A stretch of 63,699 nt of DNA, counting the filler, from Basidiobolus ranarum (Eukaryota): NCBI GenBank assembly GCA_040143965.1. It is 12 parts of 12 records of this genome, joined end to end, with 100 filler letters (N's around TTAATTAATTAA, not from the genome) between each part and the next. Parts side by side here need not be neighbours in the genome. Positions count along the whole stretch, not along the records: positions 47,881 to 53,089 come from JASJQH010001668.1; 11 more parts are not named here. One strand, written 5' to 3'. Every line of letters starts with the position of its first letter. Position 1 is the stretch's first letter. Made by a program: the position numbers and the translations under genes. Shown piece after piece: positions 5,235 through 58,496 of this stretch. Below the pieces are notes generated by a model. The model was not told where the DNA came from. It saw only the letters and a program-made list of their open reading frames with translations, and did not search any database.

Positions 5235-5334
5235 NNNNNNNNNNNNNNNNNNNNNNNNNNNNNNNNNNNNNNNNNNNNTTAATTAATTAANNNNNNNNNN
5301 NNNNNNNNNNNNNNNNNNNNNNNNNNNNNNNNNN
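5235..5334. other. Artificial contig linker (N44-TTAATTAATTAA-N44). Identical linkers at 10565-10664, 15890-15989, 21210-21309, 26528-26627, 31843-31942, 37156-37255, 42469-42568, 47781-47880, 53090-53189, 58397-58496
   Basis: Eleven identical 100-bp spacers with stops in all six frames. The intervening segments shrink steadily from 5234 to about 5203 bp, as expected for size-sorted concatenated contigs. Confidence 0.99.
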
Positions 5335-5444
5335 CTAAGTGATATTTGACTAAATAATGTTGACTAACTAATATGTGATATATGAAATAGTTAGGTGTAT
5401 AAAGATAGGGATAACATATATGATAAAGACAATAAACTTCAACA
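5335..5444 (-). mobile_element. Copia LTR fragment (family B), nested in a family-A LTR
   Basis: The reverse complement matches the LTR that starts at 61497 after a copia RNase H and PPT. It ends in TTCAACA and directly abuts family-A LTR sequence. Confidence 0.75.
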
Positions 5445-5724
5445 GTTGTAAGCAGACAACTATGTAGAGTATGTTAGGGAAGGTCCCAGGTACATGTGTG
5501 CAAAGCTTGGGGCTTCTAGCACAAGCTTAAAAAACCTATCTATCTGAGAACTTCTAAGTTGGTAAAAATATTCCAAGTAAATTCCTCTTGAGAATAGTGG
5601 GATGATATCTTAGTTAAATATAGGATAACTAAAAATAATGGGTGATATCTTAGTTCAATAAAGGATAACAAAATACTAAGCTATATATGACTATATAGGT
5701 GTTTAGGCAATGCTTATTTCAACA
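5445..5724 (-). mobile_element. Copia LTR family A, partial
   Basis: Shares GGTCCCAGG...TTGGGGCTTCTAGCACAAG...GACTATATAGGTGTTTAGGCAATGC..TTTCAACA with the PBS-linked LTR at 37546-37887. Confidence 0.85.
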
Positions 5725-8130
5725 ATCTTGACAGGTAATTCCAGAGCATATCATCCTTACACATCCAACTGGCACATATAATAAAAGTTTGTTACCCTCA
5801 CTCATTGAATATCACTTAGTGAAAAATTGATATATATTTTTATAGTGCCAGATTGTGCTGTATATACGATATCAGATAAGTATTCTAAGAGCTATGCAGC
5901 ACAATTTAGCACTCTCCAGCATGAGTAATTTCAATCATTAGTACTTAATTGTATTGAGCTAAGGTTCAATAACCCCTGGCCCGATGGAACAAGTCAAAAA
6001 TATACATGAATTAACCAAGAATGAGTAGTTAAACTTGAAATTTTACAGTTGCTCAAATTAACCCTAAAACTAGCCTACTTCACTAACATAGACATTCTTG
6101 ATATCTCTTCTTGAGTTGAATTTAGTAATAACTTGACGTACATAAGCATTGTATCCGAGTAGACTGACATTTCATAATAAGCACTAGGTTTGTACCAGTA
6201 ATGATCGTTGTCACTTGGCTAAAGCAAGTGCATGTCTTTAAATTGCTTGTTTGGCTTAGCAAGTTGGAGGGTGCTTATCACTCTCTACTCGTACACAACA
6301 AACGGCGTAAGATAGCTAGCAATAGTGTTTATTAATTATAGTCAGGTATTAGTGAACAGAGAATAATATTTCTGCTAGTGAGCGATTATGGGTTTTTAGT
6401 ATCATTGGCCTTGTTCGGTGAAAAACCAGCCCATTATATAACTCTTATTTTGAACTAACTAATACTGCACGCAATGAGTAGCACCACGCATAAATAATGA
6501 TAACCGGCTTTTGGACTATTAAGAACGAACGAATTCATTACCTTAGTATACATATGATATGATTAGAAAACTCCAAGATTCATTTATACAATTTCGGAAC
6601 TCAAATCAGATGTCAAAGCAAATACAGCATAAATAAATTGGAATGCATGCTATTGTTGACCTCCCAGTCAAGTCTAGACTGTGTTAGGTGGGTAAAAGGT
6701 GTTTACACTGAGAACACTCAAGGTTCTACCAACTTGAGTGCTTATCACTACTCTCAGCAATCGAAGGTATGCTTCAGTCAGTGGCTGTTATATGTACACA
6801 ATCAGCGTTCACTAATTCTCCGAAAAGGAACGAATTGCTGGCTTCGGGTTCATGCGAATCGATGCACGTTCCCATTACATTCGCATTTATTTGATTTACC
6901 ACCAGCTTAGTATTCACTCACCATCACAATCACAAAGGAATACACGAAATGCGCCTGTGATATCGTAGCTCTGCCACGAGTTTAATGAAGTGTGAAGCAG
7001 TGGCTTATATCCCAGTGTCCCATCTGTATGGTTTTAGAAAGTAGCATTTATGGCCATTTGGATTCCTTCTCAAAGCCTTTCGCGATTAGTTATAAAACAT
7101 AGACAATTAGTCATGGTGATTGGATGGTACAAGATTAAACTAGTGTAACCTTGGGATGCCACAACCACTGTGATTGTTTCAGAAGTGATTGCACCCCATT
7201 ACAAATTCTTGAAGCTAGACTGGGCCTGCAATCGAGAGCTGATTGGATTGCGTACCACTGTATGCATGATAGAGAGACGATAGAACTCAGATCCGAGATA
7301 CTTGATTCATTATCATGGATGGCGAACCCAAACCATTGGCAAAACATGCATTCAGAGCCTATTATTGGGGAAAGAGCTAACACAGACTGGCTGTTGCATA
7401 GGTGTGAATATTCTCATGTATAGTGATGGCTTGAGCAAGATAAATCCAGTATTCAACCGAACGGGTGTATCTGACTCCTTCATTCTTTGCACAAGCTACG
7501 TATTTATCCGTTAGCACGAATGGTGAAGCGCAAGTTGGCACGAATCTGATGACCCTTCTAAGCGGTAGACTGCACACGCTTGTTGAAGTCAAGTGGGGCA
7601 TGATACATAGACAGTTACACCTCGGATATCAGTTTATCAAGGCAATGCGCTTGCGCTGTATATCTCCAACAAAAACTGATTCCTGGGCAAAATGCCCCAA
7701 ACGCTACAGATTTAGATTAGCTCGTCTTTATCCTTTCCCACACCACTTTACTATCAGTAGCAGCTCGGCTGAATAGATCCTTGCGTTATATATTCTTACG
7801 ATCACCCCAACTGCATACTCTCAAAAACCTCTCTGGGCGATCAAAATCTGCGGGATGGGTCAGATCGCGTCTGGAATCGCAATGATCGGTTTGCTGAAAG
7901 ATTGCATCTACAAAGCAGGTTTGATCGCGATAACCAAGATATTAAGAAGTACTCTATTCAATACCATTTAACAATCCATCTTTTAAGACACACTAAGTTT
8001 AGACTCTAACCAGTACCTATGAGAGATTTTTCAAGATTCTGTCTTTTGCTGTGAAACAGGCTTGGAGCCAATGCATCACCTGAGAGGATCTTTAACTACC
8101 TCCAATGCATCCATATGGGCCATCGTATGC

Positions 8131-10564: not shown

Positions 10565-10664
10565 NNNNNNNNNNNNNNNNNNNNNNNNNNNNNNNNNNNN
10601 NNNNNNNNTTAATTAATTAANNNNNNNNNNNNNNNNNNNNNNNNNNNNNNNNNNNNNNNNNNNN

Positions 10665-10955
10665 TTTTCACTTATTGATTTATTGAGTAGAAAGTTGACA
10701 TTTATAGTTTTGTCAAGATGTAAACAAACTAACATGTAGAATATGTTAAGGAAGGTCCCAGGAAAATGTGTGCAACGTTTGGGGCTTCTAGCACAAGTTT
10801 GAAAAATATATATATCTGAGAACTTCCAAGTTGGTAAAAATATTCTAAGTAAATTCCAATTGGGAATAATTGATAATATCTTAGTGAGTTATAAGATAAC
10901 TAATTTCTAAGTTATATATGACTATATAGGTGTTTAGGCAATGCTAATTTCAACA
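10665..10955 (-). mobile_element. Copia LTR family A, truncated by the contig start
   Basis: High similarity to 37546-37887; ends GCTAATTTCAACA. Confidence 0.9.
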
Positions 10956-15889: not shown

Positions 15890-16670
15890 NNNNNNNNNNN
15901 NNNNNNNNNNNNNNNNNNNNNNNNNNNNNNNNNTTAATTAATTAANNNNNNNNNNNNNNNNNNNNNNNNNNNNNNNNNNNNNNNNNNNNCATAACTCACC
16001 TAATGTAAATCGAGGTGGGGGGGGGGGTGTTGCACAAAACATGGGCTTAGGTAAGCATGCGATCCCCAAATCTATACCAGAGAAGCAGGGGTCAGAAGGA
16101 CCAATTGTTACATCAATGTCCAAATTTAGAGAAGTCACTCTGGTCCAATTACTTCCCTCATTACTGGAGAGTGTGGTATTTGTATATATTAAATGAATCA
16201 ACGTCATGACAGGAAAAAAAAATACACCATTCAAATTCCTAAGGAACAATGAATGAAAAAATCCTTTGGTGGAGCCGTATTTAGTGGTTGTGATATGGTA
16301 TCCAATAATTATTATCGGCGATGACTTGCTGATACAGATGAAAACTCATTATCATTATTGGAGAAGTGATGATACCACTTTGGACAACTGAATGTAACCA
16401 AATTTATAAACGGTGCTCCAATCATCGCACGTAGCAATATCTCCAGTGCTTGCAATAAAGGTCTAGTTCAACTTAATGATAATTGGTTCCTAAAAGTGAG
16501 CTAAGAAAGTATTTTATAACCCTAAAAAAGATTTCATCTCTTTCCAGCTCGACTCTCCAACACTGAGGACAAATGAGGCTCTTAAGGCTGGAAATCGAAA
16601 GGTGATCATAAGAGCCTTAAATTACACTCAGTATATATTAACAAGCAACGCCATAATTTTAAGTATGTAT

Positions 16671-16959
16671 TGTTGAAGTATTTTGGGAGTTGTTGGAAGA
16701 GATTTGGAGAACTAGAAGAATTGGTACTTTTCACTTGCTGATTTATTGAGTGCAGGTTGACATTTATACTTCTTCAAGAAGTAGATAAACTTTTGGACAA
16801 GTTTTAGAAAATCATATAATCTTCAAACTTCCAAGTTGGTCCCAATATTGAGCGTCAATTCCTCGTGAAGATATTGAATAATAACATATTGAAAATGTCA
16901 TAGTGAAATTTAGGTAGCTAGCTATATGACTATATAAATGCTTAAACTATGTTACAACA
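16671..16959 (-). mobile_element. Diverged, internally deleted solo LTR, family A
   Basis: Runs from TGTTGAAGTATTTTGGGAG to GACTATATAAATG..ACAACA; collinear with 37546-37887; no clean TSD. Confidence 0.75.
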
Positions 16960-22900: not shown

Positions 22901-23584
22901 TGCCACTGACTCAATGATTAGTTGCTGTTGAGGATGAAAAGGATGCTGAATTAAGGGCGTTTTCTTGTCTACTGTTATGAGAGAGGTAGATGCAATAGAA
23001 TAAAGTAACACCAGAGTGTTTCTCACAGGCAGAGGCTGAACCGAGTTTTGGCTATTATCTCACCGTATAATAATAGAACGGCGCAATCAGCCTAATTGAG
23101 CTACTGCGATAAAGGAGCCCTTATAGCATTATCCAAATAATACCCTTTGCCCTTTTAAATCTTCATCGTCATTGAAACGACTTGAATGGTTACCAACGTA
23201 CATTTGATATATCCTCGGTTTTGGTGTTAAGGAGTGAATTCAAAACAATATTTGAAGCTAAATATATTACCTTTAAGAAGCTGAGTAATTAGTGGTAGCT
23301 CTTGCAAGGGATATTCTATGGGCTATGGAGGTCTGAATGGACCTCTGAAATAAATAGATGAAGTAGAGTTGTTACAAATACTTATTTTCAAGGAAGGGGA
23401 TAGATATGTAAAGTCTTCAGCTCTGTGTAAAAGGCTTCGAAAGTAGGCATATTTTTCAAACAGCCATCCACTTAGTCTTGCATCTAGTTATCTAGGTTTT
23501 GAATACTCTTTGTTATACTCTTTCACACTGGCTGAGCATGGAACAGGCAAACACAGATACTCAATTGGAATTTACTTATTGAAA

Positions 23585-23924
23585 TATAGAGTTACTAAAT
23601 ACTGAGCTATATATGACTATATAAATGTTTAGGCTATATTAATTTCAACAGGTAAGAATATTCCAAGATATCACCTCAAGAGGAATTTCCTTAGAATATT
23701 GACACCGGCCTAGAAGCTCTCAGATATACAGATTTTTCAAACTTGTCCTAGAAGCCCCAAACTTTGATCACATGTTCCTGGGACCTTTCTTAACACATTC
23801 CACATGTTTATTTGTCTATTGCTTTACAAAACTATAAATGTCAACTTTCAATTCAATAAGTGAAGACTACTAATTCTTCAAGCTCTAAAAATCACTTCCA
23901 ACAAGCCCCCCAAATACTTCAACA
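23585..23924. mobile_element. Two family-A LTR pieces in opposite orientations
   Basis: 23585-23650 is one LTR end (..TTTCAACA). About 23670-23924 is the reverse complement of the other part of the LTR (TAGAAGCCCCAAAC, CCTGGGACC, ..AAATACTTCAACA). Confidence 0.8.
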
Positions 23925-24056
23925 CATTATAATAAGAAATATATAGCAAGGATGCCACTTTTTAAGAGTTTTCATCTCTACTCTTAACTCCCCGAAGCAC
24001 TATTATGTCAAGAAGCTGAGTCTCATCAGTAAACACTAGAGTTGTAAAGAGATATT

Positions 24057-24385
24057 TGCTAAAGTATTTGTGAGCCGGTTGGAAGTGGTTTGGAGAATTA
24101 GAGAAATTGGTGGTTTTCACTTATTGATTTATTGAGTTGAAAGTTGACATTTATAGTTTTGTCCAGATGTAAACAAACAAATGTGTAGAATGTCTTAAGG
24201 AAGGTCGCAGGAACATGTGTGCAAAGTTTGGGGCTTCTAGCACAAGTTATCAAAATCTATATATCTTCAAACTTCTAAGTAAATTCCTTATGAGAATAAT
24301 GGATAATATCTTAGTGAATTATAAGATAACTAAGTACTAAGCTATATATGACTATATAGGTGTTTAGGCAATGCTAATTTCAACA
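24057..24385 (-). mobile_element. Complete solo LTR, family A, with 5-bp TSD ATATT
   Basis: TG...CA termini, with ATATT at 24052-24056 and 24386-24390. Confidence 0.93.
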
Positions 24386-25514
24386 ATATTTACAATAGAA
24401 GCAATGTGTATGGTATCCATAGCACTCTACCTTCTTTAATCATGACCAATAGTTCCTTGGTTAGCTATATTTAATCACATTGCTTAATTCTAATCAACCC
24501 GGTTTTAGTATAGCTTAATAAGAAGTCATCAGTACCATTTATGCATAAAACTGTGTGAAGTTAACCATGTGAAATTAGACGCAACGAGTGCGGTATCAAT
24601 TGATGGGTGTTTGATTGATAAGAAACCCAGTATGTTACATATCATCCATTCAGAGAATCCCATTTCAAATACTCCAAAACCGATGTAGGGGAGTAACTCA
24701 GATTGAGGAGTATATTAGGTGCATAAAGCAAGTTAGGATCGAGTATTCAAACTATTTCATTGAGGTTGTGGAAGTGGAGGAAGCGAAATCTCCGAAGTTC
24801 TAGTTTGTCACGAGCAACTAAGAGCAATAACTATCCAATTACACAAGCCACATCTTCAGTGGTTCGAGTCTGTACCACAGACAAAACTTCACCGACACGT
24901 TACCTTGATTAATCGTTTTAACAAGTCGAGATCAACGATTTATCATGTTAAAGGGGGGAAGGCCCACAGTCATCATACATACTGACCTGTGCTGTAGATG
25001 CCGCCATTTCATTCAGCCCAAGAACTGATAATTCTTTGAGAGGGTCAAGATGTATCCAAGTATACTCTAACTTAGCTTTCAACTATTCAACTCGAACGTT
25101 CATCTCGTCAATGAGGTAAAAGACGCAAGAACGTTGAAAACTGGCGAACAAAGTTATCGATCTTTGATCAATCTCTATGTTCGTGTAACAGAAGTACAAA
25201 GCTGTGAAGTGCGAGTGCTGTATGCAGTACAAATTTCTCACAAATTTTGGAAAACCTCAAATCTCTTGAAATCAACCATATCTACATTGTCTCATTAACA
25301 ATGCGAGGAATCTCTAGTTATACTTTACAATGAATTTAGTTTTATTCCTATCGGTTCATATATGGTTTTGATTTGCTTCAACTAGTAACTATTGGGGGTC
25401 TTTGTAATGCTGGTGACACATAGTTGACCTATTATGTTCAAGACTCCCCTTCTTGCGCCATTTAAATATCGGAGGTTCACCGCGTTACTTTCGTTCATCT
25501 TTCATCAGTCAACC

Positions 25515-28513: not shown

Positions 28514-30458
28514 CGTGAAGTATCTTAACTTTCCACGATAACATCTGGCTTTATATATATATGTGGATCATGGACTCGAGATAATTTTTAGGAAGGTGCC
28601 ACTAAAATGTACTATGGATTCCTCTAACCAGATAAAAATATTTCTATACTGAATATTTATTGTTTTTGAAAGCACTGATGTAAAACCATAAGTTTAAGCT
28701 ATGATATTCATGTCTCACTGAATCAACTTACTACGATATTATGAAATGTGGGCTTATACAGTGGATTTATGATAAATAGTCGCCTGTAAGTCCGAATTAG
28801 ATGGGAAATCGGCGATTGCGGATCAGAAAATTATCACACAAAAGAAATGTTACATCGTCCAGCTGGAGGAACAATTGTGATGCCGATATGGAAAGTAAAC
28901 AGGAAGAGAATATCGTTAGAGAATGAATCGAGTGATTCGCCATACCGATTTGCTACGTAGATGTGACTTCCAACTTGAACATTTTACTTGGCTACTTGAT
29001 TTACCTTCTATCACAATGAGTAGATTTCAATATGATTGAATGATTGATGCTTTTATGTGAAGTTGTGATTCTTGTGCTTAGTTTTGTAGTTCCCACAATA
29101 GGGCGAATGTCTACTCGGCTACATAAAGCTCTTAATTCCAGAGTCCAGTGTATTGATAGATTCTTTTTGCTCGCCAATCTCACATATACACTGTCTTTGC
29201 AGTACGACTGTGATAAGTCTAACTCTCCAGTTTCGTAGCAAAGATACCTGCTAACTGACTTCTACTCACAATATGTTGACTATCAGAATAAGCGATACTG
29301 AGAAGAGTACACGCATTCGGATATTGGTGAATTCTTGCTTATAATCGAATGATCTTTGAAACATGTTCATGGTCTGATCATTGACTTGTGACAGAATATA
29401 ACTGAATGACGCACTACCATCAACTCATCATTATCGCATTCACTTGACCAATTTCGGATTGAAACAACCACTAAATAATTCGATCCCATGTTTTTCTGTT
29501 CCTATTTTGGGCTTACATATAAATCCAGTTTTGCCTCTTGATACCAAGTTACAGTAAAACTATGTGTGACTATAATTTGGTCAAATCTGGTACATTTTAT
29601 AACTGATCATGGGGATTTTTGATGATGAGTCATGATTTCTGTGATTGTTTCATATCAGGCAATATAATCCAACGTCAGAAAATGTAACACATCTTTACAA
29701 GAAAAGCAATGGTCTTCTTTTTTTAAAGCTTGCTGAGTTTGTAGTGAAACCATGGGAAGATCTTGATTTCATATACTTTCCATTATAAATGCATACTAAG
29801 CTTTGTTGGGAAAATTCATTTGTTTCATCCTACGTCAGAATTTTGTGCAAAATCCTTACTCAGCTTAGCCTTGGTGTCTGAGATTGGTTTCAACCCCTGA
29901 GATAAGAGTACCATATTAAGAACATCTATTAAATAAACAGAGAAGTCAGAAAAATATGAGCTTTTTTATCCAAGAAAAAACAATATTTTTTCAGATTACT
30001 TTTTTTTGTCAATGACAAGCTTCTATTATATGATTAATTATTCTATCAACCTGGAAATTCTAGAACATTCTTGTTGAATATTAAAGTGAAATAGATTTCA
30101 ATTACAATTCCAATATTAGTTGCATACCTGAAAGTATTATTTTACAGTAATCAAAAGAAATTATTATAATAAATCAATAACACTTTGTATATCCATGACT
30201 TACTTGATTTTGAACTGAGATCAACAACAAATTCAAGCATGGTCCATGAGTTACTGTTTAAAATATGGCGAGAACACTTGAGTTATGGCAGACTTTTAGC
30301 TTCCTCCAGCTAATAACAGCATTTATGGTATATGATTTAATGATCAAATAATGCAATCGAAGTAAATTTGAGATCAGTGATGAAATGGACCCAAAAAAAA
30401 ATAGAATAATTACATACATACCCCAACCCTAAAGTATCTGGAGTCTCTAACATTGATA

Positions 30459-30542: not shown

Positions 30543-30637
30543 GATCATTATTTAGGATATTGAAAATGTCTGTCCTACTGTTTGTATTAACATCGTGATG
30601 AATGATGTCATGTTATTTCTTTGACTCTTACGCTGAA

Positions 30638-30682
30638 TTAGGGTTGGAGTAAGGTGAGATAAGGGTATGGGTAGGGTTAGGT
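30638..30682 (+). repeat. Degenerate TTAGGG-like G-rich tract
   Basis: TTAGGG TTGGAG TAAGGT GAGA TAAGGG TATGGG TAGGG TTAGG. Confidence 0.45.
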
Positions 30683-31970
30683 GGTGAGGTTCATCATTGA
30701 CTCTAAGTCGGTATATGATAGAGTTTTACACATCTCTGACTTGAAGTTCAAACCGGTGTTTTTCCTATTTCATATCATCCATGTTTCGTCTAAGCTTGCG
30801 GCAAGAATGATCACAAACATGCACATGTAATATTCGGCCCCTTCACTTGACTTTTCTGGTTAAGATCCTTACCATTCGAACAGTTGTATAGTAAAGGATA
30901 CTTCACCTATCCACCATTTTTAGTAAATATGTAGTTCTCCTCACTCAATCAATTCACGTTTCAGTGTCGGTAGAGTCAAACATAAAGAATAATGTAACGA
31001 GAGTTCTACACATGGAATAAAAATGACTATGGATATCTAAATCAAGATTTATCCCCCCAAATTCTCTGATAACTAGTGACTTACCACACATCTTTTCACC
31101 AAGCTTACCGAAAGAATCATGTATGGTAGATTTATTACATTTCAATCTGATTAACAAGTTGTGATCAAGATTGAGGCTGGAATAAGTACTTTCATAGGAA
31201 CTAACTTTTTCCAATGAGAAAGGTAAAGTATTGGTCGAGTGTAGAGATAGTGACATATCAGGTGGCCAAAAATCTTAGGGTTACAATAGACTTACAATAC
31301 TCCATCGTCCTATTCGTATCTACTCTCTTTTGGGTAAGAATCTTGCAATTCAAACAAGTATGGGCTAATATCGTAGTAGATTTTACTAATCTTTCATGTT
31401 AGCAGATTAACAAGTTATCGCAATAACATCAGCACCGACCATTACGTTTCATTGATGGGAAAATAAAGCAAATTTGTTGGTTGTATAGTATTGAGGAAGC
31501 ACTTTAGAGGCGAAGTTGATCGGGCCTTTATTGACAAATCTGGTGTCTGGCCACTCCCAAGCTATTATATCAGAATAACATTTCTCTGAAAGTATTCTAG
31601 AAAATGAGTTGGTAAGCACCTTGAAATTTATTATATATATATGGATATTATCGCCTCAAATCATCCATTTGTTGATACAAAGATAGTATCTTCACGAATT
31701 TTCGAAATATTATTTTTAGTCTGTTATCAAGGATAACATTGACTGGCATGTTTATTGGGATATTATTTCCAAGATGAGAGGGCGAAGTAAGGAGTAACTA
31801 CATAACCGAGGATCAAACATCTTGATAGTAAGTGAATGCAAANNNNNNNNNNNNNNNNNNNNNNNNNNNNNNNNNNNNNNNNNNNNTTAATTAATTAANN
31901 NNNNNNNNNNNNNNNNNNNNNNNNNNNNNNNNNNNNNNNNNNGTACATCCTATCCTCACCAAGATTACTT

Positions 31971-37255: not shown

Positions 37256-37887
37256 CAGTTTTACCCTTTGAACATTGAATTAGCAATTTGTCTTGAAACA
37301 TTAAGACAGATTATATTAAAGGCACTTTGTTCTTTTTAACCTGGAGTAAAACTTTGGTTTCAGATAGTTTTGCATTGTTTTCTTTGCCTACAACAGTGTC
37401 CCAAAGTCCTTTTTCTTGCAGCAGCATTTTCATTTTAATTTTGCAAACTTGATAATTGGTTCCTTCCAGTTTTACAGAAGAGGGAAAGGTTTCATAGATT
37501 TGAGAAGTAGACATTACAGAGAGTGCAAGCTTGGGGCTCATAACCTGCTCAAGTATTTGGGAGCCTGTTGGAAGTGGTTTTGGAGAATTAGAGAAATTGG
37601 TGGTTTTTACTTACTGATTTATTGAGTTGAAAGTTGACATTTATAGTTTTGATGTAAAATACTAACATGTAGAATGTGCTAAGAAAGGTCCCAGGAACAT
37701 GTGTGCAAAGGTTGGGGCTTCTAGCACAAGTTTGAAAAATCTATATATCTGAGAACTCCTAAGTTGTTAAAATATTCCCAGTAAATTCCTTATGAGAATA
37801 ATGGATAATATCTTAGTGAAATATAAGATAACTAAGTACTAAACTATATATGACTATATAGGTGTTTAGGCGATGCTAATTTCAACA
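37256..37887 (-). mobile_element. 5' end of a Ty1/copia element: LTR 37887-37546, PBS and degenerate gag start
   Basis: A 342-bp TG..CA LTR is followed by GGTTATGAGCCC and then gag-like KLEGTNYQVCKIKMKMLLQEKGLWDTV. Confidence 0.9.
37534..37545 (-). promoter_or_regulatory. Primer-binding site complementary to the anticodon stem-loop of initiator tRNA-Met
   Basis: GGTTATGAGCCC directly after the LTR's terminal CA is the complement of GGGCUCAUAACC. Confidence 0.85.
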
Positions 37888-47780: not shown

Positions 47781-48544
47781 NNNNNNNNNNNNNNNNNNNN
47801 NNNNNNNNNNNNNNNNNNNNNNNNTTAATTAATTAANNNNNNNNNNNNNNNNNNNNNNNNNNNNNNNNNNNNNNNNNNNNTCGAATGTGATTATGGCTAC
47901 GCCAAGATTCTCTTGTAACTTCACCAATCCTACAGGGTCTACGGGCGTGCTTTGCGATATGCTCCGAACATCATTTCCAAAAGGCAAAGTACTCGTATCT
48001 TGTCTCTTCCATCAGCTGGCAATGAGCCAGGTCAGTCCAAAAACAAAAGTGCGTTAAAGGCAATGAAATAGAGCCTTGCTTAACTTTTAGTTGCGAATCT
48101 TCAGCCGCAAGGATATAAACTTCGACAGTGTCGCTACCGTACTGAAAAAACACGTAGGTTGATCAAGTCTAGTCCAGCCTCAGGCTCAACTACTGAGTAG
48201 AAAGCATGCTCCTCTTAGTATACACCTTGCTGCATCATTCCACATGGTCAGAACAGTTACAATACTTCCGAGTGTATCGAGATGAGCCTAACTTCGCTTT
48301 GACAAGTGCAAGAGATATTTATTATTTAAGCTTGGATTAAAAATTGGTGGCTACACTGGGCTAAAGTAGGCGTGCTAACATAACAGAAAAGGTAAGAAAC
48401 CATCTATCATCCCCAACTCCTCGCCCATTTAAGGTATGGGTTTATCATCAACATGGATGGTGGGGGAATGAATTCGCATCAGTGAGGACTTTATTAAGAT
48501 GTGCTAAGTCACAAAAGCTCTGCAGACAATTCTTTATCATCACA

Positions 48545-48627
48545 TATAAGGAATGGTATCACTCTATTAGTTCAATATTCAACTATAAGGAATGGTATCA
48601 CTCTATTAGTTCAATATTCAACTATAA
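48545..48627. repeat. Perfect 39-bp tandem duplication
   Basis: TATAAGGAATGGTATCACTCTATTAGTTCAATATTCAAC twice, plus a further TATAA. Confidence 0.95.
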
Positions 48628-49117
48628 ATCCAGATATCATTCTACATTTTGGTCACCTTAGATAAATCAAGCAGCATCAAGCAGCATTATTGAGATCCCA
48701 TACCTGCGCTTGGTATCTTTCCAGAGAATATCTATTGTAGTGGGAGAAAATGCCATAGATGTATGTAGCTATGTTTAGTTTGATGATTTGTGATTTATTC
48801 TTTTGTTTGTGATTTATTCTTTTGTTTGTGTGATATGAGATGTATATACAAAGAACAAATAAGGTCAAATTCCTGATCAGAACCATATTTTCGCATTAAC
48901 ATTTCCGTCCTTAAGATTTCCATTTATATTTCGACGACAATTACTCTATTACTCTGACAATTACACTACCTACGAGAGGTGTTCTTAGCAAGCATAACTC
49001 TTGACCAAGCCTTGCCCATAATGGTTGGGAATTAATAACTCTTACAAAAGTTAATGTTATGTTTAAAAAATGAATATACTATCATGACCTAGGCTCATAT
49101 GGTACTATAACTGGTCT

Positions 49118-49893
49118 TCAATCGACTAAACACATAGCTCCAGTCTTGAACATTCCGAGATTAGAGGCAGTACCTTGGAACGTTTCAAAAGCATTCTCCT
49201 CATGTGAAATAACCTATTTCTTCGAGTTAGGTTTCATGAATGAACTTATTAGAACCTGATGAGAACTTACGTAATACTCCGTTGACAGTTTACTTTCCCA
49301 GCGATCATGGTACTTAACTTGAATGTGACCGACTTGGCCTCGATTTTCATGTTCTGCCTCCCAAATCACCATAATCCTCTTCATAGAAAAGTTAGTCAAA
49401 TGGACTTAAACTGTCATAGTATATAAAGAGAAAACGTACCTTTGGATCATCAAGGCCACAACTCTTCAATCCCCACTTGTTCGCCCATCTAGTCAACATG
49501 TCCTTGCTCGAATAACTAATCGTATCCAACGGTTCAGCGTTTCCAATGTAGCTATCGCCCTTCTTTTTCAATTTGGCATCGTCGGTTTTTTCAGCTTGAA
49601 TATAATGCAGCCTGAACAAGGCCCAATTAAGGCATAGCCATGGAGTGCTCATTTCATCGACGCGAGAAACGATGTCCCAGTTCTTCAGAGTACCCTTATC
49701 AAAGTTGATTTCTATGAATTCCTTTTCGCTGACTTTTGGTTTATCGCCAAAGATGTTGAGCATGGAAACATCGATGTTCGCCTCTGTGGAAGGTGGAACT
49801 GGAGGCTCGTAGATTTGGTAGGGCCTATTTTATGATTAGTCTGAGGCGTACATAAATTTTAGACTGGGTCCTCACTGACTTAACTGCGTCCAT
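49118..49893 (-). CDS. Uncharacterised 200-aa protein with a papain-fold-like Cys/His motif pattern. Exons 49893-49880, 49824-49440, 49378-49271, 49213-49118
   Basis: Three GT-AG introns with CTAAY branch points splice into an uninterrupted 603-nt CDS: MDAVKPYQIY...PWLCLNWALF...RIMVIWE..VGHIQVKYHDRWESKLSTEYYVISHEENAF...CLVD*. A TATA-like element lies near 50031-50038. Confidence 0.8.
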
Positions 49894-51494
49894 CTTGAAT
49901 TTGGTCTACGCTCGTAGTTTGTTTTTGTAATTAATTGGAAGGCGGTAACTTGAAATTGAGTAGAGTAGTAAAGGCGGAAAAGGTGAGTGATAAGGTGAAT
50001 GAGGGCATCTGGATACACGAAATATTGGATTTATATAGCCATTTCAGTATTTCGATTTTTTATTTGCTTTGAATTTAGCCCTCATTAATGAAATCTTCTT
50101 AATATAGGATCACATTATGTTTATCATAAAGACAGTTGTGAGAATAAAATCCTTCTTCAACATTAGCGATGGCTTCGCTCGTCAAACACACATTCAGAGG
50201 GCATGCAGAAGAATGTTTACATCAGCCATTATAGAACATAGCAGATCTCAACGAATTTCAGTAACATTCTTTTTAGGAAGGCATGTACCAGAAATATCTT
50301 ACTCAGGGCTAAGCATCTGAATCAAATTCAATATATCTGAGACAACGGCTTCTAGCCCCATCTTCGGTTTCAAGCGTTCGTTAATCTATCCTTACTCAAG
50401 GAATGTTACTACTTTGTCAGAAATTCAAGACCGAGAGACTAACACGAATTACTCCATTTAAGATACTTGGATTCTCATTCACCTTCTTCGAGAAGTTTGT
50501 ATCAAGCCACAATCAGGTTGCTGCATGAAAGCCCATATATGGTTAACAGGAAACAAAGCTCTAGCACATATGATCATATGAGAAGGTCGGAACTTTGATC
50601 GCATCCTGCTCCGCCTGGGCTTCGGTAATCGAGTTGGCATTCCAACCGTTCCCAACAGGTGCATACGATTCTAGTATCAGTATGGAATACGCTCGTAGTT
50701 TTTCAACTATAACAGGTGGCCATCATATATTTAGTTATATCTCGAAACATTTGGTGACCATTCCGTTATGTAACTAGCTACTGTGCAAGATCGGTGTAGC
50801 CTTTGAGAACGCTACCCATTAATACTTATAGAACTTGAGGTCCAACTCAAAGGAATCCATATAATCAGAACCATGAAAGTCTATCTATCTTCGCGTAGCA
50901 GAAACTTGATAGATGACGTACTACAGTTGTAACGAATAAGCAATACCTGAAGGTCGCAAAAAACAACTAAGCCATTTTTGATGATGTGTCTCAATGGGTT
51001 GCACAACATGTTCGATTCCCAGTAAGTTGTATAGGATTTGATAAATAAGAGAATATCATTTTGCTGCATATACGGTAGAGCTCGGGATTGGAGGGTATCT
51101 CGAGCTATTATTGATGTCCGGATTTCATGGCGTTGTGACTAGTCAACTTAAACAATAGCCATAGATTCGGCTAATTTAATTTAGTGTGAGAAATGGATAG
51201 AAATGGAAAGAACACGTGAAACCAGCGTGTAATCGTTCATACTTCGTTATGGATTTACAGTTGGAAAAGCACATTGATTGACTTTCTCTGCAAAACAAGG
51301 CACATTCACACTGGTAGAAGAATCGGCAGAGGAATCTTCAATTAGGACCAATTGACTCTCTGCAATATTGACATTTGGAGGAGAAAGTCAGATGTTGATT
51401 TCAAATCGAGCATGGATTGCTCAAAACAAGTAAAGATCGTCCAGATGAGATCTGCAAGGAGAAGCACTAAGAACATGGGCGGAGATCTTAGCAC

Positions 51495-53089
51495 TTAGGG
51501 TCAGGGGGAGACAGTTACCAAAAGGTGAAATCTTTATTTCAAACAAAACAAAGAAGCCATTGTTAAAGCATTTTGACAGCCTGTTGGAAATGGTTTGGTG
51601 AATTAGATAAATTGGTGGTTTTCACTTATTTATTTATTTAGTTGAAAGTTGACATTTATAGTTTCATCAAGATGTAAACAAATTAGTATGTAGAATGTGT
51701 TAAGGAAGGTCCCAGGAATATGCAAGCAAAGTTTGGGACTTCTTTGAAAAATAGCAACATCAATTTTCCATTCCATATAGAGCAAAACAAAATGGAGTTG
51801 CTGAGAGGATGAATAGAACTTCAGTGGAGAAAGCACATACAATGCTGATTGATTTAGCTCTGCCTAAGATCTATTGGGGTACAAGTTTGAAAAATCTATA
51901 TATCTGAGAACTTCTAAGTTGGTAAAAATATTTTAAGTATATTCTGAAATTCAATAATTGGTGCTCTCTTAATGAAATATAAAATGACTAAATATTAAGC
52001 TATTTTTGACTATATTGATGTATAGGCTATGCTTATTCCAACAATATATACTTGTCCACTGTTACTAGATGACTTGTTTGGAGTTTGTATATATATATAC
52101 TTAACTGCTATTACTATAAATGATGTTGCACAAGCCCACAATCCCATCTTTGGATGCATTAAATGTGGAAGAATAGGGGGATGATAAACACCACAGGGTA
52201 TAATATTTATTTAAAAAGTAGATAAACAACTATTAAATAAATAAGTTAATGTAGCATGAGATGCTTACAATGTATATTGAGTTTAAAATATAAAGAAAAT
52301 AAAATAGTATGAAAATACTGCAATTAGTTAAAACTCTTGGAGTTTGCAATATCCCATAGATGTTGAATGTCAAAGTCTAGCAGAGAATGAAGTCAACTGC
52401 TTGATCACTATAGTAATTTGTTAGAAAATTGGTGAATTATAGAGAGGGAGAGCTTAGGGGGATGAAAAGCACCACAAGGTGTAATCTTTATTTATCTCAA
52501 GTCATACAACATAAATAAACACAGAAGCCATATTGAAAGTAAAAGTCAAAGGTGTAGCTAACTAAGACTTATTTAGGGCAGCATCCTAAATCTCATCATA
52601 AAAGATAGAAGTGTGGAGTTAAAGCGCCTTAGCTTGGGAAATGTAGAAGTCTTTCAAGAGTTTTGTAACAAGTGGAGAGGGGGAATTTCTCATAAGTGAA
52701 GTAAATCTTTTAAGCAGAGTGTCCTTTGAAGAAAAGGGATCATAGAGTGGTGTTCCAGAATTTTTTTGGAAGCAATGAGCACCTGGCTGCCTGGGTTAAG
52801 GTTAGGGAGCATGAAGAGCACCAGAAAGTGTGGACTTTATTTAGCTTATATACTAATCTAAACAAAGTGACATTCAAGACATCAATATTTTAAGATATTG
52901 TGACAATTCTGTATCATATCCATACTTAACTTGATGACCAATGTAATCAAGCTCAGAGGATGTAAATATAGTGTTAAGGGGCAAAGGTGGTAGGCAGAAA
53001 GGAAGGTACTCAGTGCAAACCAGATGGACAATAGGACAAAAACCTGGAATAATGGGAATTAAGAAAGGTGTCTTGGAGGCAAGGTATTG
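51495..53089 (-). mobile_element. Chain of four truncated putative retroelement 3' ends sharing a ~39-bp terminal module
   Basis: Consensus TAGGGGGATGAAAAGCACCACAAGGTGTAATCTTTATTT at about 51503, 52174, 52455 and 52803. Each has a TTAGGG-like left junction and is followed by a decayed minus-strand ORF C-terminus. Confidence 0.55.
51561..52043 (-). mobile_element. Family-A solo LTR carrying a 137-bp copia integrase insert (51744-51880, + strand)
   Basis: TG..CA LTR collinear with 37546-37887 except for an insert encoding QHQFSIPYRAKQNGVAERMNRTSVEKAHTMLIDLALPKIYWG. Confidence 0.88.
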
Positions 53090-53791: not shown

Positions 53792-56700
53792 ATGTACTTA
53801 GATCAAATCAGAGTATGGATTTGCTTAATATATTGATATGGATCTGCAGGCCTAAAAAATACATAAATATATCTAAATCAGTCAACTTGAATTGGACTAA
53901 TAGATGCCTATTGGCATTCCGGGGAGCTTCATCACTATTAGTAGCTATAATCAGATTATCTACATATATGGGAAGTATCACCTTACTATCCTTATTTCTT
54001 TTAATGTAGATCCCAGAATCTGCCACACTATTTTGGAAATCAAGTGATTCTAAGTATCTGTCTCTGTTAGTGTACCAGGCCCTAAGCAATTGTTCAAGTC
54101 CTTAAGGTGAATTTTGTAGATTTCACACATCCTCAGTATGCTCAGGAGCCACAAGAACCTCTGGTTGATCCATTAATATATTCTCTTCCAAGTCCCCATT
54201 CTAAAAAGCAGTTTTAACATCCATTTGATGGATTTTGAAGCTGTGTTTTGCAGCTACTGCTAGTATGGTTTTGATGGAGTCAAGCTTTGCTACAGGAGCA
54301 GATATTTCATTGTAGTCCACTCCTTCCATTTGAAAGTATCCTTTAGCAAAAAGTCTGGCTTTATATCCTTCTACAGATCCATCATCTTGCCGTTTATCTT
54401 CAAACACCCATTTGTATCCAATTCATTTTTGGTCATCAGGTAACTTAATAAAAGTCCAGGTTTGGATATCTATGAGTGACTGATACTCCTCTGCCATTGC
54501 AGCTCTCCAAAACATTGGTTTGGGACTCTCCATGTCCTCCTGTACTGATTTGGGTCTATCAGAAAAGGCTAAATTGGCACTAGGCTTCTTTTGGCTGGTG
54601 TGAGAGTAGTAATCAGGAAGAGATCTCATCCAACTGGATCTCCTAAGATGGAAAACTGGCACCACAACTTCTGGTACCAACTTAGGCAATAACACCACCT
54701 CAGGCTTGGTTGAGGAGACTGCAGATGAGGTATTTTCAATGTTTTTCTGACCGATCAGGATCTGGTGAGAGAAAAAAGAATTTTCATCAATTTTGATTGC
54801 TACTCTTGATCCTGGATTGCTTTGATTGAAAATTTTTTCTTCAGTAACTTTCATATCTCTTGATTTGATTAGCTTCTTATTATCTGTGTCATATAGTCTG
54901 TACCCTTTTGTTCCATTGCAATATTCTAAAAAAGACATTTCAGGCTTTTTTGGTCTGATTTTGATCTCTGCTGGTCTGAAATCATTGCATATGTGGTATT
55001 TCCAAAAACTCCAAGATTAGCCACATCAGGATTACTTCCAAACCAAGCTTAATAGGATGGCATAGCCAATAGGGACATAAAAGGACATCTACTCCTAATA
55101 TTTACTGCAGTTGCAATCCATTCATCTCAGAATTGTTTTGGTAGATCTTGATCATGAAGCATTGATCTTGCCTTTTCATTGTTGATCTGTTTGCACATTG
55201 TGCTACTCCATTCTGCATTGGGGAACTTGGTACTGTAGTCTGCTGTTTTTCCCATGTGTTGAGCAGAAGTTAGAGCAGAGTTTTGAGTTGTATTTTGCTC
55301 CATTAACAGTACTGTTGATCTTGATCTTTAGACCTGTGTTAGACTCTACCATAGCTTTGAATTTCTTAAAAGTATCAAAGGCCCCATCCTCACTGGCTAT
55401 AAAATGCACACAAGTATAATTTGTCTTATCACCAATAAAGGGCATAAAATACCTTTTTCCACCAAAGGATTTTGTCTGTATTTGGCCACACAGATATGAA
55501 TTTATCAGGCCCAATTTTTGATCCATTTTGCTCTTTCCAGAGCCCACAAACTGCTGTCTGTATTGCCTATCATGTAGGTAACCTTCATATAGCTCCAGAT
55601 CTGGGGGATTTACAATATTAAGTCTCAAAAGCATCTTGTTTTTGATTAAATTTCTCATATTTTCAGCTCCTAGATAACCCAATCTCCTACGCCAGATTTT
55701 CCAGTCTATCTCTTCAGCTGTGGCAGCTTTAACTTGTTCATATATTGGCCCAATATAAAAAAGTTTATACAAGTTGTTTGGCTTAGCTCCAGAAGCTATG
55801 TTGTAGTGTTGGAAATATTCCAACCATATCTTGCACATAATAAGTAGGAAGAATATTATATAATGCTCTCTTATAATATTTTACAGATCAAGAAAAAGAA
55901 CAAGAATGTTCAATCTCTGATAGTTATATCAATACTTAGCTTATTACAGTAACTCTAACAATAATCAAAAACATGAAATTAGAGCTTTGCAACCATGCAA
56001 TAATCATAAGATTTGATCAATTATTGGTGGAGCTACAACCATTTCAAAATTGCCAACACAAAAGTAACACTAGCATATATTCAGAACACTGGAATTCAGG
56101 ACCTCAAGATGCTCACAAAATTGGTGTTAACTCTTGAACCAGCTCATGGATCCTCTTCAATCTTTGCATAGAGCTGTGACAGTATTTGATGCTGATGTGG
56201 TCAAAGTTTCAAAGCCACAGCTGCTAAATTAGTGACTATTTTGGCGCTTCGATGCTAAGCCACCCATTCATAGCATTTATTTTAAGCTGTTTCTTTATAT
56301 AAGCAACCCTTCCCCCTAGTGAAAGAAGCTTCTAGCCTTAGCACCATCCAAGACTGCCCTATATTCTTTATCCTTTCATTAAATAGATATTTTACCCTGC
56401 ATCATAATAAGATAATAAAGATTCCTATTGCAACTCAACTAGGCTGGATTATTGAAGATTGCTGTTCAGATTCTTTCAAAGTTATCTTGACTTTTACAGC
56501 CATGGAATATATCCTACTCTTCATCAAAGTCTTTGCCAAGCTCAAAGGAACTGTATCCTTTTCTTCAGACTTCAAGTTAGAGAAACAACCAGAGTTTTAT
56601 CTACCCTTGTAGTATTGAGGATTTTTGATAGTTCTATTATCAGAAATAATCTTTTCTCATGAAGTCTTCAAGCTACTTACATACTGAACTATGTCTTTAC

Positions 56701-57835: not shown

Positions 57836-57850
57836 GTTATAACCGTAGCA

Positions 57851-57866
57851 TAACCCTAACCCTAAC
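57851..57866 (-). repeat. Short telomere-type tract (TAACCC)2TAAC at a copia/CACTA junction
   Basis: TAACCCTAACCCTAAC lies between copia gag and CACTA-like transposase sequence. Confidence 0.5.
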
Positions 57867-58396
57867 ATCAAACTTGATATTAGCCATAAGCCTAAGATTA
57901 TATTGGTAAAGGGGATCAGCTGGAGCCAGAGCTTCCCTTTAGGCACTATGCACTTACTATTCAACAACATTCCAATACTACTTACTCAGCTATATAGTGG
58001 AAAATCAATATGAATGAGCCATTAAAGATAGGATCAAAGTTTGAATCGATTGGGAAAATGCTTGAAAACATCAAGATACCATCATATTTTACCAGGACTC
58101 CCATCAATATTGACTCATCTAGGCACTTATTCAAATGCAAAGACTGGAAGTATTGGATTTATATATATTCAAGTGGAATTTTGAAAAGATTTCTGCATGA
58201 TAAGTATTGGCAACATTGGGAGGTGTTTGTCGATATTGTTAATATATTCTTACAGCATCAACTCACATTGGCAGATCTCAGGCAGATACAGCAACTGTGC
58301 AAAGATTTGGTAATTCGACAACATAAACTTTATTACAGGTTTAAAGAAGATCCACTGAATCCATGCTGGTATTAGCTGCTATTCTTTCTTATCCAA
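57862..58396 (+). mobile_element. CACTA/EnSpm-like transposase fragment
   Basis: PLGTMHLLFNNI, IPSYFTRTP and FKCKDWKYWIYIYS; a close paralogue of 58770-59280. Confidence 0.75.
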
Positions 58397-58496
58397 NNNN
58401 NNNNNNNNNNNNNNNNNNNNNNNNNNNNNNNNNNNNNNNNTTAATTAATTAANNNNNNNNNNNNNNNNNNNNNNNNNNNNNNNNNNNNNNNNNNNN

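Follow-up and report, generated by a model that had tools for sequence, protein, structure and literature searches.

The array of repeats analysed here occupies the right end of a Basidiobolus ranarum contig and probably represents four severely 5'-truncated copies of retrotransposons without long terminal repeats (non-LTR; long interspersed element, LINE, type), which lie head to tail in minus-strand sense and would have been laid down by target-primed reverse transcription. All four copies have a common last 40-70 nt, which we take as the end of the element's 3' untranslated region (UTR), whereas their 5' truncation points vary, leaving units of ~190, 281 and 349 nt (units 1, 2 and 3) ahead of a fourth that is open to the contig end. 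The DNA under study (the window hereafter) is a 63,699-nt stretch of 12 separate contigs sorted by falling length from 5,234 down to 5,203 nt and joined by artificial filler (N44-TTAATTAATTAA-N44 linkers at 5235-5334, 10565-10664 and so on to 58397-58496, at a spacing of ~5.3 kb), across which no feature is readable. Judged by the linker positions, the array lies on contig 10 of the 12 (47881-53089, 5209 nt, no strand assigned) and extends exactly to its right end at 53089, where a linker rather than continuous sequence follows. An earlier note on this DNA had described truncated retroelement 3' ends, head to tail and in minus sense with telomere-like junctions, and this geometry holds.

Unit 4 and its LINE relatives

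Unit 4 (52874-53089, minus strand) preserves the last 71 codons and the TGA of a non-LTR retrotransposon open reading frame 2 (ORF2), an assignment that draws on phmmer as well as on C-terminal and full-length profiles. Its frame (52877-53089, minus strand, 71 codons; stop TGA at 52874-52876) gave two matches among 1.84 billion representative proteins (HMMER/phmmer), P0121 and a fragment, P0122, and residues 2-51 of unit 4 align with residues 820-869 of the 890-residue P0121 (E 6.6e-5). In Pfam, P0121 has the reverse transcriptase (RT) domain RVT_1 (E 3.5e-22) and an N-terminal Exo_endo_phos_2 domain just above threshold (27.5 bits with a cut-off of 27.4), and it belongs to a family of six proteins that includes one from B. 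meristosporus; identity to the other five is 44-52%, and beyond them matches drop to generic LINE RTs at E 1e-24. N-terminal matches to Exo_endo_phos or Exo_endo_phos_2 occur in four of the six proteins, and the family consensus contains GDLN and SDH motifs. Profiles made from the family point to the same place: one covering the last 78 alignment columns of five members has unit 4 as its sole match across the 12 contigs (E 3.9e-17), and in the 856-position full-length profile unit 4 corresponds to 787-843 (E 6.8e-13). When compared with the PDB, the family RT profile lies nearest to human L1 ORF2p (E 1e-21) with R2 next (5e-9), and no telomerase chain is seen at E <= 1. Also absent, from the last 160 residues of the six proteins and from their consensus, is the C-terminal restriction-enzyme-like (REL) endonuclease motif (CCHC ... 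RHD ... E ... R/KPD), with no Pfam match in that region. Going by sequence comparison, unit 4 is thus the extreme C-terminus of a LINE ORF2 whose relatives carry an apurinic/apyrimidinic endonuclease (APE)-like domain together with an L1-like RT.

This assignment bears on the element class favoured by the earlier note, which had seen in the array a fossil chromosome end that endonuclease (EN)-deficient Penelope-like elements (PLEs) of the Athena, Coprina or Terminon kind extended four times by priming on the G-rich overhang. The geometry does fit: the array lies at a contig end, its units are truncated on the 5' side and have the same polarity, and C-strand repeats close their 3' ends. EN-minus PLEs with such 3' repeats are described in PMC8557442 and PMC13159263. 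However, the sole unit that reaches an RT-encoding ORF leads to a LINE family with RVT_1 and an endonuclease/exonuclease/phosphatase domain, and the RT of that family resembles those of L1 and R2 rather than telomerase, to whose RT the PLE type is sister. Moreover, the hammerhead ribozyme, which according to PMC8557442 accompanies the 3' telomeric repeats of EN-minus PLEs, gave no match at E <= 10 in an Rfam scan of both strands of 47881-53089 that returned two unrelated weak matches. So while the terminal repeats are those expected of such elements, RT type, nuclease domain and ribozyme are not, and a Penelope-like origin, largely refuted in our view, keeps but a very faint chance.

Four modules with telomere-like tails

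Between the unit 4 stop codon and the start of unit 3 lies the whole 81-nt 3' UTR of this LINE copy (52793-52873), in which the module copy 4 region is joined by the stretch 52849-52873. Of this UTR, 71 nt align at 73% identity to the terminal part of unit 3. The module, ~40 nt long, is present four times in direct orientation (51501-51540, 52174-52213, 52455-52494 and 52804-52843) with 63-88% identity to the reference copy and with a direct-repeat spacing of 281-673 nt. A four-copy profile recovers all modules (nhmmer, E 2.7e-13 to 7.2e-10) and finds no further one in the other 11 contigs, the best match elsewhere in the 63.7 kb being at E 0.29. Read on the minus strand, each copy starts with AAATAAA, continues with a 4-nt loop that a 4-bp stem may enclose and then with a run of pyrimidines, and closes with CCCC(C)TA(A), in agreement with the earlier note, whose account of the four junctions is likewise confirmed. 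Taken together with their tails, and all on the minus strand, the copies extend over 51495-51545 (copy 1, a putative LINE-type 3' UTR end with tail TTAGGGTCAGGGGG at 51495-51508, a 12-mer of which has one mismatch to (TTAGGG)2; E 4.2e-10), 52168-52218 (copy 2, with its tail cut down to ATAGGGG at 52173; E 6.7e-10), 52449-52499 (copy 3, which is nearest to the consensus and has the tail TTAGGGG at 52454; E 2.7e-13) and 52793-52848 (copy 4, whose tail GGGTTAAGGTTAGGG at 52793-52807 is telomere-like; E 7.2e-10).

CCCC(C)TAA is found at three of the four ends and an additional unit at two, a telomeric reading that assumes TTAGGG to be the host repeat, and none of the four copies has an A-run between module and junction. 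Telomere-like 12-mers (any phase, at most one mismatch to (TTAGGG)2) mark six loci in the window compared with 0.77 per shuffle, and the junctions at 51495 and 52793 are two of these six. Further left on the array contig, 50929-50983 may be a fifth, badly decayed tail (64.7% over 51 nt, E 0.07); it contains 23 nt that match (78%) the sequence immediately upstream of modules 1 and 3, together with a small hairpin of the form ACC...GGT, has neither AATAAA nor a telomere-like unit, and is not matched by the module profile.

As for the stem-loop, the earlier note had proposed a recognition hairpin kept by G-U swaps. Of the 16 sequence-by-pair cells, 15 permit pairing. The stem, of 3-5 bp, is unstable, and a covariation check on the four copies counted no compensatory changes. 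Folding z-scores for copies 1-4 are -0.83, -3.18, -0.34 and -0.01, so that three of the four modules fold no better than shuffles, and the one at -3.18 adopts a different, AU-rich helix. The hairpin is without covariation or thermodynamic support, and we do not retain it as a conserved signal.

A second type of coding remnant in unit 3

The body of unit 3 (52562-52789, minus strand) holds the last ~75 codons of another protein family (tblastn E 2.6e-31; profile E 2.1e-36; database E 5e-19), which is represented by the hypothetical B. ranarum proteins P0243 (106 residues) and P0242 (174 residues, partial). A 58-codon ORF in this unit is 77% identical to both, and when read through its stops the remnant follows P0243 from residue 36 to the last residue, 106, at 52789-52565. 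It is pseudogenised, with two in-frame stops besides the natural one (52562-52564), which is where the earlier note had placed it, and ~3 nt separate its 5' truncation point from the telomere-like tail in which unit 4 ends. The P0242/P0243 family has no Pfam domain and, by sequence search, no PDB relative (best E 0.1); in the ESM Atlas it matches only unnamed clusters from early-diverging fungi and shows a weak structural likeness to RNA-binding and prodomain folds (template modelling score, TM, <= 0.43 for the named matches). With a mean predicted local distance difference test score (pLDDT) of 46.6, the AlphaFold2 model of P0242 is too poor for fold comparison. That we are dealing with an ORF1/Gag-like protein is a guess.

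Unit 3 is thus the C-terminus of an ORF unlike that of unit 4, so that two element types end in one tail, which agrees with the earlier claim that a single 3' module serves more than one ORF, namely the LINE ORF2 of unit 4 and the P0242/P0243 family of unit 3. The simplest reading of one tail on two ORF types is an autonomous LINE and a partner brought along via 3'-end recognition; the P0242/P0243-type element would probably be that non-autonomous partner, copied in trans via the shared tail, and it is from this tail that we infer its mobilisation. Outside the module, the unit bodies share no DNA save for the above 71 nt at 73% between units 3 and 4. Since these two units have different ORFs and otherwise unrelated bodies, they are best seen as separate copies and not as a tandem duplication.

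Units 1 and 2 and the solo LTR

For the AT-rich body of unit 2 (52219-52448, minus strand) no identity was found, and its matches to P0242/P0243 are negligible (tblastn E 1.2-4.5, hmmsearch E 1.3). The earlier note had taken two of the spacer peptides for diverged homologues, yet with just a few hundred bases to search, the comparison of unit 2 with the unit 3 peptide yields tblastx E 0.094, which is not significant, and we abandon this relationship. Unit 1 consists mostly of a solo long terminal repeat (LTR; 51562-52044, plus strand; TGTT...CAACA) that had been overlooked and that is 72-88% identical (blastn) to sequences on five other contigs; it has no matching target duplication (flanks GCCAT / ATATA). 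Inside the LTR sits a 137-nt insert (51744-51880, plus strand) with a Copia-type integrase-core fragment (Pfam rve_3 E 8.4e-4 in the ORF 51755-51904), which also matches the Copia pol of contig 12 (tblastx E 3.8e-4), and other copies of the LTR join 51743 to 51881 with a 3-nt gap. Such a pol scrap inside an LTR is an odd arrangement. The remainder of unit 1 upstream of the LTR (52045-52167, minus strand) matches neither the ORF2 nor the P0242/P0243 profiles, and without the LTR the unit measures the ~190 nt given above. This Copia-type solo LTR was inserted later into the leftmost copy. The view that the spacers are ORF C-termini stands for units 3 and 4, fails for unit 1 and finds nothing to lean on in unit 2.

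The LTR family is dispersed (~350 nt, TGTT...CAACA) with relatives on contigs 2 (~5444-5726), 3 (10665-10955), 4 (~16669-16789), 5 (~23563-24393) and 8 (~37545-37887). On contig 5 two LTRs are inverted and ~130 nt apart, and the plus-strand copy has a 5-nt target duplication, ATATT.

The repeats might, alternatively, have arisen by local tandem duplication and then decayed, or they might mark the end of another element, be it a Helitron, an LTR element or a DNA transposon. The repeats are direct, with a spacing of 281-673 nt that would suit duplication, and the minus-strand module ends in CTAA or CTGA downstream of a small hairpin, which recalls Helitron 3' ends, where a hairpin is followed by CTRR and a host T. 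Against duplication, the unit bodies are unrelated and two of them carry different protein C-termini. Against a Helitron, the bases that follow CTAA are G, C and G instead of T, copy 2 lacks CTRR altogether, and the 3-5 bp stem has z-scores near 0 in three of four copies. An LTR or DNA-transposon terminus, the case the earlier note had named as fatal to its own proposal, is not what we find either, as the local LTR family has other ends (TGTT...CAACA) without the module and the unit bodies are unrelated. Taken as a group, these origins strike us as hardly credible. On sequence grounds we also dropped, as readings of the module, a Helitron or LTR terminus, a C/D small nucleolar RNA and a hammerhead.

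Other features of the window

In the unique left part of the array contig, a 145-codon open frame without Pfam match (49395-49829, minus strand) probably belongs, as an exon, to a host gene of no special kind, and 48541-48627 consists of two tandem copies of a 44-nt unit (aggaatggtatcactctattagttcaatattcaactataagg...). The remaining contigs hold ordinary fungal genes and Copia-type elements, including, on contig 5, a 7-dehydrocholesterol-reductase fragment with 87% identity to a B. meristosporus protein (further matches <=72%). Telomere-like sequence turns up elsewhere as well. On contig 6 a C-strand stretch (30410-30435, CCCCAACCCTAA) stands opposite a ~50-nt degenerate G-strand tract (30637-30690), 250 nt apart and with a 40-nt unit present twice in between; these facing tracts may be an interstitial telomeric scar or the ends of another element. 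On contig 11 an exact (CCCTAA)2 (57849-57867, plus strand) lies near a Copia-type element (SH3_retrovirus 54423-55016, minus strand), and no LINE module or ORF2 remnant is found beside it.

How the array may have formed

A plausible sequence of events would begin with the CCCUAA end of a LINE RNA that pairs with a TTAGGG 3'-OH, whereupon target-primed reverse transcription starts. The 3'-OH might stem from a nick that the element endonuclease sets in a telomere-like tract, for which the tail of a previous copy could also serve, or an exposed chromosome end might supply it. RT would then copy back along the RNA and halt early, resulting in 5' truncation, and a chain could arise from repeated use of the same tails or from an RT that leaves one RNA and resumes at the 3' end of another. 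The second ORF type would enter as a non-autonomous partner copied in trans through the common tail. It should be added that the geometry which has survived scrutiny here (CCCUAA RNA end, TTAGGG-3'OH, 5' ends toward the chromosome end) is common to all retroelements priming on the G-strand.

Several of our results weigh against a chain of truncated LINE copies made by target-primed reverse transcription. Just one of the four units (unit 4) links to an RT-encoding ORF, and units 1 and 2 are without a coding remnant identifiable by the ORF2 and P0242/P0243 profiles. Each copy adjoins the next tail, which leaves no unique flanks in which to compare target-site duplications. The telomere-like tracts are very short (~0.8-2.5 units), half of each is inside the conserved module, and the 12-mer scan found no long telomere array in the window, TTAGGG as host repeat being an assumption. 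As to the nuclease, the endonuclease domain exceeds the Pfam cut-off in just one of six relatives, and the first 242 residues of P0126, compared as a single sequence with the PDB, retrieved no nuclease. Finally, full-length relatives are presumed to end in the module, and when metagenomes were scanned with the ORF2 family alignment as query (80 loci kept of 196 confirmed) none of the 80 loci, all <=38% identical, gave a match to the module by nhmmer at E <= 1 or to the C-terminal profile at E <= 0.1.

An alternative route dispenses with endonuclease cleavage and sees LINE copies added end-on to an uncapped or broken chromosome end, the array being a fossil or present subtelomere. End-on addition has precedents in HeT-A/TART of Drosophila and in endonuclease-independent L1 insertion at dysfunctional telomeres. 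It would agree with an array at a contig end whose 5' ends point outward, with a leftmost junction where unique sequence meets two telomere-like units, and with the weak conservation of the nuclease domain among the relatives. Yet there is no long telomere tract on the contig, which breaks in a repeated LINE ORF, the usual break point of short-read assemblies. Between copies there are just 1-2.5 units where telomerase re-extension would be expected to leave more, and the LTR insertion implies a locus internal enough to gather other elements. On balance we regard end-on addition as unlikely.

Template jumping, a known property of non-LTR RTs, offers yet another route, in which RT passes between several RNAs during a single retrotransposition event and thereby generates a chimeric concatemer. 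The very short units (~190, 281 and 349 nt) and their direct joins, with ~3 nt between the unit 4 tail and the unit 3 homology, are what such an event might produce. Modules that are 12-37% apart and a unit 3 with two in-frame stops would, however, require several diverged RNAs at once unless the divergence came later, and a single event of this type seems to us distinctly improbable. What we favour, within a chain of truncated LINE copies, is serial endonuclease-mediated insertion into the tails of earlier copies, or a mix of this with end-on addition or template jumps.

Comparison with known systems

A close parallel is offered by TRAS1/SART1 of Bombyx mori, as set out in PMC7265360. The ORF2 of these non-LTR elements includes an APE-type endonuclease, they enter telomeric repeats in a single orientation through target-primed reverse transcription, and their 3' UTR plays a part in initiation; the same paper states that SART1Bm requires at least 3 TTAGG repeats and a long poly(A) tail. 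Our copies differ in that they lack an A-tail and end directly in 1-2.5 CCCTAA-like units, and their host is an early-diverging fungus, not an insect. TRAS/SART elements insert at a fixed position inside long telomeric arrays; in B. ranarum 1-2.5 units flank the 3' ends and there is no array on the contig.

MoTeR (Magnaporthe), FoTeR (Fusarium) and Cnl1 (Cryptococcus) share with our array a fungal host, truncated copies that outnumber full ones and a common orientation, and PMC12857005 further describes FoTeR/MoTeR with the 5' end toward the chromosome terminus and C-strand telomere repeats after the 3' end. That account places MoTeR/FoTeR/Cnl1 in the CRE/SLACS clade with a C-terminal restriction-enzyme-like endonuclease and lets 3 to 7 repeats follow FoTeR 3' ends. 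The family reported here, in contrast, has an N-terminal APE-like domain and no CCHC/RHD motif at its C-terminus, and its 3' ends are followed by 1-2.5 repeats. With Athena, Coprina and Terminons it has in common the reverse-complement telomeric repeats at the 3' end and the one-polarity truncated chains that, according to PMC8557442 and PMC13159263, occur at chromosome ends; unlike them, it comes with a LINE RT that is not PLE/TERT-like, with an endonuclease-family domain and without a hammerhead.

In another respect, units 3 and 4 resemble pairs of a LINE and its partner, for they differ in coding content and have the same 3' tail, presumably recognised by the RT. Partnerships that share a 3' end include LINEs with short interspersed elements (SINEs), HeT-A with TART, and ORF1-only L1 derivatives. 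The present case departs from these in that the partner ORF (P0242/P0243) is without a recognisable domain and its mobilisation in trans is something we infer. A literature search for Basidiobolus together with telomere or non-LTR elements found no relevant paper.

What the array means for Basidiobolus

What we describe are LINE copies with a telomere-like, poly(A)-less tail, which is modestly unusual in an APE-type LINE; mildly unusual, too, is that two different genes share this tail. Otherwise they are ordinary mobile-element debris. With the locus decayed and the assembly fragmentary, the practical value is mainly one of annotation, as Basidiobolus genomes can be annotated for a LINE family and its 3' end as well as for an element that is probably its partner. 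A bolder reading, which we hold to be doubtful albeit not far-fetched, would have Basidiobolus harbour an APE-type LINE family and a non-autonomous partner whose sole product is a protein of unknown kind, possibly ORF1/Gag-like. The poly(A)-less RNAs of both would have the telomere-repeat complement at their end and be primed straight from TTAGGG 3' ends; in this way they would build chromosome ends and might contribute to their maintenance. This would make them an early-fungal counterpart, in the APE lineage, of HeT-A/TART or TRAS/SART, independent of MoTeR/FoTeR/Cnl1 and Coprina.

If the tail is functional, it would add a third, independent fungal lineage aimed at telomere repeats, beside the REL-type MoTeR/FoTeR/Cnl1 and the Penelope-like Coprina, and show that an APE-type LINE can do without poly(A). 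The common tail on two ORFs, in addition, offers nature's own simple case in which to test how a LINE RT recognises a 3' end and, if true, the above scenario would help to gauge the frequency with which retroelements have converged on chromosome ends.

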